From a virus (lineage: Duplodnaviria > Heunggongvirae > Uroviricota > Caudoviricetes), in IMG/VR virus record IMGVR_UViG_2645728048_000018: a DNA stretch of 27,080 nucleotides; one strand, written 5' to 3'. This document shows positions 8,412 to 8,753 of this stretch, in pieces. Position 1 is the first letter of the stretch. Every line of letters starts with the position of its first letter. The notes under the pieces are model-generated. The model was given only the letters and a program-made list of their open reading frames with translations. It was not told where the DNA came from and did not search any database. The position numbers and the translations under genes are program-made.

Positions 8412-8516
8412 ACAGCCTTCCCCTGAATAAATTAACCGCCACTTGCCATTCCGTACAGAAGTCGGATATCCTTCGCCCGAAAAGCATGAAACACATTTCT
8501 GCCATGCTAAAGAGAA

Positions 8517-8550
8517 ACCCCGGTATCAGCAGATACCGGGGTTTTCTTTC
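8517..8550. terminator. Strong hairpin with U-rich flanks in the I-J spacer
   Basis: AACCCCGGTATC-AGCAG-GATACCGGGGTT followed by TTTCTTTC on the plus strand and TTTCTCTTT on the minus strand. Confidence 0.45.
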
Positions 8551-8616
8551 ATGCCCACCGATAATCCTGTTGGTTAAAACCGGTAATGGCATAAAAATTC
8601 TGAATATCTTCACATT

Positions 8617-8644
8617 TTCACACACTGACTGTGGCGCTTATAAT
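8617..8644 (+). promoter_or_regulatory. Sigma70-like promoter on the plus strand (antisense to the tail operon)
   Basis: TTCACA (8617-8622), 16-bp spacer, perfect TATAAT (8639-8644), with an AT-rich UP-like stretch upstream. Confidence 0.45.
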
Positions 8645-8650
8645 TTCGCT

Positions 8651-8749
8651 GCGTTAGTGTTTTTTTGCCCGAGTAACAAAAACAACTCCTTAACATTGAT
8701 CTTCATTTGTCTGTCCCCGCAGCTCCGCGATCACTGCGGGATTTTTTTA
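8651..8749 (+). ncRNA. Candidate ~100-nt small RNA in the I-J intergenic spacer
   Basis: Promoter-like element directly upstream and an intrinsic terminator at its 3' end (CCCGCAG...CTGCGGG followed by ATTTTTTT, 8716-8748). The body carries a CA-rich single-stranded-looking tract (AACAAAAACAACUCC) and no credible ORF. The 340-bp I-J gap is absent from lambda, where I and J abut. Confidence 0.4.
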
Positions 8750-8753
8750 TGTT

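Follow-up and report, generated by a model that had tools for sequence, protein, structure and literature searches.

The closest described relatives of the RNA gene analysed here were reported from enteropathogenic and enterohemorrhagic E. coli. PasB of the EPEC strain O127:H6 E2348/69 (E2348CN_0006; NC_011601.1, 1466343-1466261, minus strand) is an 83-nt RNA of prophage PP6 that was confirmed by Northern blot and found to depend on Hfq (Pearl Mizrahi et al. 2021, PMC8550237, including its Table S6). Its level dropped by 6.8 and 2.4 log2 units upon deletion of hfq and was higher in the non-activating condition, and with 37 RIL-seq interactions it takes rank 15 by interaction number in the EPEC Hfq interactome. 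The RIL-seq tables of that study also give a 3' end and a U-tract length of 7 for PasB, which is the second RNA in every one of the chimeras listed, while PasB is missing from Table S7 with the authors' motif search. Its partners include bfpB, bfpI, ler, perB, ftsZ, the tolC 5'UTR, ffh, fabR, and trmJ together with ygeV, yibT, yidF, yfcM, yfeA, rplX, ycfH-antisense, and yrdD-smg (PMC8550237). A recent preprint reported 1,158 PasB hits, distinguished a PasB-2 allele that differs from PasB at position 27, found the Pas sRNAs to be confined to Escherichia and Shigella, and described PasB as embedded in an operon of phage structural genes and as an RNA without known function (Zhu, Shabalina and Storz 2026, bioRxiv 10.64898/2026.05.13.724894).

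In EHEC O157:H7 Sakai, the RNAs EcOnc22/23/24 are encoded by prophages Sp15, Sp14, and Sp11 (Table S2 of Tree et al. 2014, PMC4104026; old Sakai coordinates 2902714-2902774, plus strand), give a Northern band of around 85 nt, lose stability when Hfq is missing, and show an Hfq-CRAC peak (PMC4104026). Other Hfq-associated RNAs are also carried by E. coli prophages. AgvB and AsxR (RF02702, RF02703) are likewise short Hfq-binding prophage RNAs that sit at a moron site of lambdoid prophages and bring a promoter and a terminator of their own, but they are unrelated in sequence, lie near the lysis genes, downstream of PR', measure only 51-60 nt, and are proven sponges. HnrS (EcOnc10/11/12), which represses hha by pairing with a purine-rich ribosome-binding site (AGAAG), is like PasB a multicopy Hfq-associated sRNA of the E. 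coli prophage late region, though encoded elsewhere and unrelated in sequence (PMC13502914).

The window analysed here is a stretch of 27,080 nucleotides from a tailed phage (IMG/VR record IMGVR_UViG_2645728048_000018) in which the tail genes I and J are separated by a non-coding spacer (Table 1). A first-pass annotation made from the letters alone had noted a gap of 340 bp, which is real and measures 342 bp, and had contrasted it with phage lambda, where I and J were said to abut. The lambda gap is indeed far shorter than that of the window, yet at 60 bp it is no strict abutment. A 411-bp stretch around the spacer was found whole in 1612 of 5426 complete E. coli genomes, and the left part of the spacer (181 bp) is 99-100% identical across 1446 genomes. 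This left part represents a long form with 177 nt between the RNA unit and J, compared to 73-84 nt in EPEC and Sakai.

Table 1. Features of the I-J spacer and the flanking tail genes, in positions of the window.
Feature	Position	Strand	Description
Tail tip / host specificity protein J gene	4938-8411	-	Start codon ends at 8411
I-J spacer, non-coding	8412-8753		342 bp between the J start codon and the I stop codon
Strong hairpin	8517-8550	both	A tract on one side, U tract on the other; terminator-like either way
Upstream block, nearly invariant	8593-8616	+	A tract 8593-8596; inverted repeat TGAA-N4-TTCA 8602-8613
Sigma-70 promoter P1	8617-8644	+	-35 TTCACA 8617-8622, 16-bp spacer, -10 TATAAT 8639-8644
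Predicted primary transcript from P1	8651-8748	+	98 nt, from promoter geometry
TAnnnT element	8655-8660	+	T8655 and A8656 invariant; T8660 in every variant with a base there
U run, variable segment, and A/C-rich tract	8660-8686	+	U run 8660-8666; ARN-like tract 8674-8686; candidate Hfq contacts
pasB, EPEC annotation transferred	8666-8748	+	83 nt; A at RNA position 27 (8692)
Core AAACAACUCCUUAACAUUGAUCUUCAUUUG, conserved and mostly unpaired	8682-8710	+	From conservation and unpaired probability; proposed seed UCUUCAU 8700-8706
Intrinsic terminator	8716-8748	+	Stem 8716-8722/8734-8740, 11-nt loop, U7 8742-8748; last base 6 nt away from the I stop codon
Tail assembly protein I gene	8754-9434	-	Stop codon 8754-8756; sRNA terminator adjoins the stop codon

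The RNA unit in the spacer matches the pasB locus of E2348/69 nearly base by base. Reverse-complemented, the PasB Northern probe AATCCCGCAGTGATCGCGGAGCT reads exactly like positions 8722-8744, the stretch from 8600 to 8752 shares 99.3% identity with a record of E. coli O127:H6, and 82 of the 83 RNA positions are the same at the E2348/69 locus. The sole mismatch (8692, A in the window and C in E2348/69) falls on RNA position 27 and therefore matches the PasB-2 allele. In E2348/69, too, I, spacer, and J follow each other in this order with PasB on the strand opposite both genes, and the two units are alike in position, strand, promoter, and terminator, down to a 3' end that lies 6 nt from the I stop codon. 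We therefore infer with high confidence that the unit in the window is pasB in its PasB-2 allele, a stand-alone gene of a trans-acting sRNA that would have its seed in the conserved core. The small-RNA gene of the window has thus already been published under two names and was experimentally confirmed in its orthologues, which bears out the earlier proposal of a prophage sRNA of about 100 nt and Hfq type that is transcribed antisense to the tail operon.

The second of these names is EcOnc22/23/24. The I-J spacer of Sakai prophage Sp15 is homologous to the unit in the window and carries it on the strand opposite the tail genes, 23 bases of the EcOnc22/23/24 Northern probe are found there exactly, and an EcOnc22 fragment recovered by RNase E-CLASH (GCCTGAAAAATAACTCCATAACGTTAATCTTCA; Waters et al. 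2017, PMC5286369) corresponds to the body of the unit. This fragment also served to fix the conversion from old to new Sakai coordinates, which amounts to +135 at the EcOnc22 locus. Location in the spacer, orientation, promoter block, core, and terminator are all homologous, and the RNAs are around 75% identical, whereas EcOnc22/23/24 have another variable segment at the 5' side and a core that differs from that of the window (CUCCAUAACGUUAAUCUUCAUCG). Predicted pairing consequently differs as well: the yjbJ site recovered by CLASH gives -22.7 kcal/mol with EcOnc22 and -11.5 kcal/mol with the window RNA. The EHEC CLASH fragments span the same core that is conserved in the window RNA. Their partners yjbJ, ECs4701, ECs4397, ECs5349, and rRNA were dropped as targets, each being represented by 1-2 reads with poor FDR. 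The table of Pearl Mizrahi et al. 2021 (PMC8550237) and the 2026 preprint do not make the connection between PasB and EcOnc22-24, and this link is a new point of our study. By analogy with the EPEC and EHEC orthologues, for which Hfq-stabilised expression of an RNA of around 83-85 nt was shown, the copy in the window would be expressed in the same way.

Two better-known prophage sRNAs were considered as identities of the unit and rejected: AgvB because of its locus (downstream of PR' and not between I and J) and sequence, and HnrS (EcOnc10-12) because its place is between the lysis genes and those for the terminase and because the window does not contain it. An Rfam search of the spacer gave no match at the gathering thresholds and, at relaxed ones, sub-threshold matches that were driven by the terminator. 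Neither the 3' domain of around 42 nt shared by AgvB and AsxR nor RF02702 or RF02703 was found in the window, where blastn-short returned only chance words.

The RNA is preceded by a promoter of its own. P1 had been noted as a near-consensus sigma-70 promoter, and it agrees with the consensus at 11 of 12 positions. A promoter scan over 1.4 kb (7900-9300) found 3 promoter-like sites compared to 1.0 +/- 1.2 in shuffled sequences, and the -10 bases A8640 and T8644 are retained in 99% of 67 family variants. The nearly invariant block upstream of P1 is exact in 102 of 126 units that were retrieved with a pattern anchored in the RNA body alone, so that its conservation, like that of the promoter block as a whole, is independent of how the units were found. 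With the centre of its TGAA-N4-TTCA repeat 43.5 nt upstream of the predicted start, this block may be an UP element or, alternatively, the binding site of a regulator.

Two positions are candidates for the 5' end of the RNA. The geometry of P1 predicts a start at 8651 and, in keeping with the length of around 100 nt given in the first-pass annotation, a primary transcript of 98 nt, while the published RNA is shorter with 83-85 nt. The predicted 5' sequence GCGUUA is conserved to 90-100% across the family, and the TAnnnT element that follows could be either a second -10 element for a start near 8666/8667 or part of a conserved 5' leader. A start at 8666/8667 fits both the 83-nt annotation of PasB and the 5' ends of EcOnc22 CLASH/CRAC reads at GCCUG. 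The predicted end at 8651 and the end around 8666 observed in the orthologues may reflect either RNA processing or initiation at a second site served by the TAnnnT element, and the proposed course of events would be that P1 drives a transcript ending at the terminator next to the I gene, with a primary RNA of 98 nt and a stable species of around 83 nt (8666-8748).

The body of the RNA combines fixed and freely varying parts. At its 3' end, the clean intrinsic terminator described earlier is present with stem and U7, and the pairing of its stem is kept in the family: across 29 variants, 94% of the cells pair and 2 pairs show compensatory changes. These pairs were counted on the named helix after RNAalifold had given no consensus for the same 29 variants due to misalignment of the divergent terminators. 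The stretch 8660-8686, to which the Hfq-CRAC peak of EcOnc22 corresponds in position, is the most variable part of the family, with the highest variability in the segment 8667-8681. Indels between family variants are not multiples of three.

A protein-coding function of the spacer could make these RNA signals secondary. A mechanical search lists a plus-strand ORF across the unit (8387-8773, 128 aa) and small ORFs on the minus strand, one of which (8638-8706, 22 aa) begins with ATGAAGAT behind a purine-rich stretch and is in line with the tail operon; moreover, hypothetical proteins are annotated in the I-J spacer of some phage records. However, an open frame across the unit is found in just 8 of 67 variants on the plus strand and 3 of 67 on the minus strand, and 24 of 52 scorable variants have ACG or ACA in place of the ATG of the minus-strand ORF. 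The indels ignore the reading frame, and the 'ATGAAGA' at the supposed start is merely the complement of the sRNA core. In agreement with the earlier statement that the unit holds no credible ORF, the frames on both strands are not conserved among family variants, and a small protein is therefore an extremely improbable explanation. Nor did we find in the family a conserved small ORF opposite the RNA as in type I toxin-antitoxin systems: 24 of 52 variants have lost the start codon, the frame is not maintained, and the predicted peptide lacks hydrophobic character.

Between the unit and J, the spacer contains a second hairpin that is very stable on either strand (plus, -28.7 kcal/mol; minus, -32.2 kcal/mol; z around -5.7) and is not matched by any shuffled sequence. 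It had been taken as a hint at more than one RNA end in the spacer. The hairpin itself is real, but the 60-bp I-J gap of lambda has a counterpart at the same position, a sense-strand hairpin followed by a U tract, and so does the spacer of Sakai Sp15. This correspondence in position marks it as an older feature of the tail operon and gives no sign of a second sRNA, and it is better read as the counterpart of the lambda I-J hairpin that lies outside the sRNA.

The setting of the unit within the tail operon raises the possibility that the RNA acts in cis, as an antisense regulator that tunes J expression or, in lysogens, blocks read-through into J, either by forming a duplex that RNase III cleaves or by convergent transcription. 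The RNA shows perfect complementarity to the late mRNA between the I and J cistrons, its orientation and position are invariant, a terminator-like hairpin of the sense strand always sits between the unit and J, and within the window no trans target stands out for the core, whose only strong pairing site there is its own antisense strand. Yet the ribosome-binding site of J is not overlapped, given that the 5' end of the RNA is more than 225 nt away from the J start, and the RNA is made by lysogens without induction, when there is little late mRNA, and is joined in Hfq-dependent chimeras to dozens of mRNAs from unlinked genes. A regulator in cis would also leave unexplained why a conserved core stands beside a freely varying 5' part and why diverged copies occur in tandem. 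We therefore regard such a function as unlikely to be what the RNA is primarily for, although roles in cis and in trans can coexist and are not mutually exclusive.

A further proposal had been that the CA-rich tract in the RNA pairs with G/U-rich seeds of core-genome sRNAs, which would make the RNA a sponge like AgvB or AsxR that sequesters the GU-rich seed of GcvB or another core sRNA. The tract (8674-8686) is present, CA/A-rich, and resembles ARN or CA-rich target mimics; sponges do exist in EHEC prophages, and one PasB chimera involves a non-coding RNA from the intergenic region beside pasA. Its pairing with the GcvB seed is nevertheless no better than chance: the duplex with GcvB R1 reaches -15.4 kcal/mol, as do 27% of shuffled sequences, in contrast to -22.3 kcal/mol and 0.4% for the AgvB control, and the window RNA holds no R1 target mimic (consensus CACAACA) that pairs above chance. 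Furthermore, conservation across the family is lowest in the A-rich tract, and the PasB partners among those listed are almost all mRNAs, so that a sponge appears very improbable.

Instead, Hfq-dependent base pairing in trans via the core at 8682-8710 is the most likely mode of action. The RNA would be made in lysogens, where Hfq would bind and stabilise it, and would pair with many host and virulence-plasmid mRNAs. We looked for the pairing surface in 17 of the 37 PasB partner regions, those accessible from the partners listed, by mapping k-mer complements on PasB and comparing them to dinucleotide shuffles; full-length duplexfold, also run for GcvB, was uninformative, since it produced unrealistically long duplexes. 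Complements of 7-mers peak at UCUUCAU (8700-8706) in 8 of these 17 regions, a peak that is equalled by 2% of shuffles, whereas the corresponding 8-mer test on the same regions falls short of significance, its result being equalled by 10% of shuffles. The evidence for UCUUCAU as the seed is hence suggestive. Among individual partners, the start codon of tolC is covered by a perfect 10-mer match (CAAAUGAAGA) and bfpI has another (AAAUGAAGAU), while a secondary site (UCCUUCACA) extends across position 27, where the alleles diverge, which means that the two alleles may differ in their action on ler and fabR. A core centred on UCUUCAU would thus read purine-rich sites of the AUGAAGA type, including start codons such as that of tolC, and repression is probable wherever the pairing site covers a start codon. 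For the copy in the window, identity, seed position, and direction of regulation are our own inferences.

To view the unit in a wider context, we searched IMG/VR by pattern scan and then with an nhmmer profile, which scores 168.9 bits on the window (8588-8764). The resulting family consists of 130 units with 55 distinct transcribed sequences, and all 123 IMG/VR loci with the unit for which the neighbourhood was assessed by tblastn have it between I and J, in antisense orientation, and adjoining the I stop codon. Tandem arrays of 2-4 diverged units were found at 6 loci. Complete E. coli genomes contain the unit at 5503 places in 1808 of 5426 genomes (median 2, maximum 10 per genome), in none of which it is annotated, and it is further found in 147 records of Escherichia, Enterobacteria, or Stx-converting phages. 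A contig scan of 12 loci with an I homologue showed that the unit is absent from those of Enterobacter, Pseudocitrobacter, Pantoea, and Rahnella as well as one labelled Geobacteraceae. Hits labelled Streptomyces, Parendozoicomonas, or Clostridiales are short contigs that are 90-98% identical to the E. coli gene and are therefore likely to be contaminations.

The second family scan, anchored in the RNA body, revealed a class of around 16 loci with sodC (Pfam Sod_Cu, E = 3.9e-32) in the same spacer and orientation. In these, the sodC insertion replaces the sRNA promoter up to GTTAATG, so that expression need not be alike among the copies of the family. Some other copies have lost the promoter to an IS insertion.

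Alternatively, the copy in the window might be an inert relic whose promoter and terminator are kept only as transcriptional insulators of the late operon while the RNA has no target-specific role. Such promoter losses are in line with this reading, and so is the literature on PasB and EcOnc22-24, which reports neither a phenotype nor a validated target. This explanation is quite unlikely nonetheless: the unpaired core is highly conserved across variants that have otherwise diverged, one complete E. coli genome in three carries the unit, in as many as 10 copies, and PasB ranks 15th in the EPEC interactome.

Regarding its origin, pasB would be a 'moron' that was inserted between the I stop codon and the ancestral I-J hairpin, against the direction of the late operon. 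Like the morons of lambdoid phages (Juhala et al. 2000, cited in PMC4104026), it is an autonomous cassette of promoter, gene, and terminator between late genes that is expressed from the prophage, and sodC occupies the same spacer in the same orientation elsewhere. The difference is that the cargo in the window is a non-coding RNA as opposed to the protein gene of a moron of the sodC type. At the family level, a scaffold that stays fixed (promoter block with TGAA-N4-TTCA, core with AUCUUC, and terminator) is coupled to a 5' segment that would be exchanged freely, and at least 55 distinct RNA sequences are spread over 5503 places. On this basis, we tentatively propose, as a possibility that we hold well short of a firm conclusion, that PasB and EcOnc22-24 are two alleles of a single large, rapidly diversifying family of sRNAs at the I-J junction of E. 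coli lambdoid prophages, by which phages would swap targeting modules and rewire their hosts. Compared to the Pas and EcOnc papers cited here, this family-level view and the predicted site at the tolC start codon are new.

Around one in three complete E. coli genomes encodes pasB, among them those of EPEC, EHEC, and clinical strains of the ST131 type, but the gene is missing from RefSeq annotation and Rfam, and naming it correctly prevents its repeated 'rediscovery'. Joining the EPEC and EHEC data sets provides two independent experimental confirmations of one locus, and beyond this link our analysis adds the picture of the family together with a testable seed and target. PasB stands high in the EPEC Hfq interactome with partners that include ler, perB, bfp genes, ftsZ, and tolC, and the candidate UCUUCAU seed with its 10-nt match to the tolC start codon is a directly testable first case. 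If the family-level proposal is true, swaps of the 5' segment would rewire host genes such as tolC, whose product serves as an efflux channel and as a receptor for phages and colicins, and the late tail mRNA may possibly be targeted as well.

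Small RNA genes recur in the spacer between tail genes I and J not only singly but also as arrays in which two to four diverged units lie in tandem, each with its own promoter-like block and terminator (loci L061, L051, L007, L024, L065 and L085). For PasB, the family to which the unit in the window belongs, typically only one variant per genome has been reported (Zhu, Shabalina and Storz, 2026 preprint, bioRxiv 10.64898/2026.05.13.724894). The unit is also present in three short contigs titled Streptomyces flavalbus, Parendozoicomonas haliclonae and Clostridiales MAG (L127, L129 and L136); in each, the I gene shares 90-98% identity with its E. 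coli prophage counterpart, which most likely marks these contigs as E. coli contamination of the titled assemblies.

Features in and around the I-J spacer, in window or locus-own coordinates.
Feature	Locus	Position	Strand	Remark
Stable hairpin followed by U tract, I-J gap	window	8517-8550	sense	
Same	L175 (lambda)	746-805	sense	
Same	L003	1241-1262	sense	
Tandem sRNA array between I and J	L061	306-1148		
sodC (Cu/Zn superoxide dismutase gene)	L140	1050-1577	+	Pfam Sod_Cu, E = 3.9e-32
Inverted repeat TGAA-N4-TTCA	window	8602-8613		centre 43.5 nt upstream of predicted start 8651
IS629-like element (TGAACCGCCCCGGGAATCCTGGAGAC...)	L056	about 636-677		inserted in sRNA promoter

Upstream of the predicted start, the arms of the inverted repeat are invariant while its centre varies, and the motif resembles LacI-family (Cra-type) half sites. 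At one locus, L056, the IS629-like insertion lies within the sRNA promoter, directly after TTCACAAACTGA.

The locus of EcOnc22, the PasB-family homologue in the I-J spacer of Sakai Sp15, is named "asxR2" in one CLASH table (PMC5286369 Supplementary file 4; old Sakai coordinates 2902729-2902766); comparison of the prophage anti-sRNA AsxR with the window revealed no sequence similarity. The prophage in the window lacks HnrS (EcOnc10/11/12), because homology of positions 25877-26069 to the HnrS-bearing intergenic region of Sakai Sp12 starts only downstream of the HnrS terminator, and no clear promoter-terminator unit was found in 25743-25880.

A sense-strand hairpin with a U tract between I and J is common to lambda, Sakai Sp15 and the window, and is predicted to be a structure that would terminate RNA polymerase unmodified by Q. 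In L140 the spacer carries sodC with its own terminator, oriented like the sRNA, and around 15 IMG/VR loci are similar (L141, L143-L149, L151-L153 and L167-L169). At these L140-type loci sodC has taken the place of the sRNA promoter as far as GTTAATG, and the sRNA body follows the sodC terminator at a distance of about 65 nt, where it might be produced via read-through.
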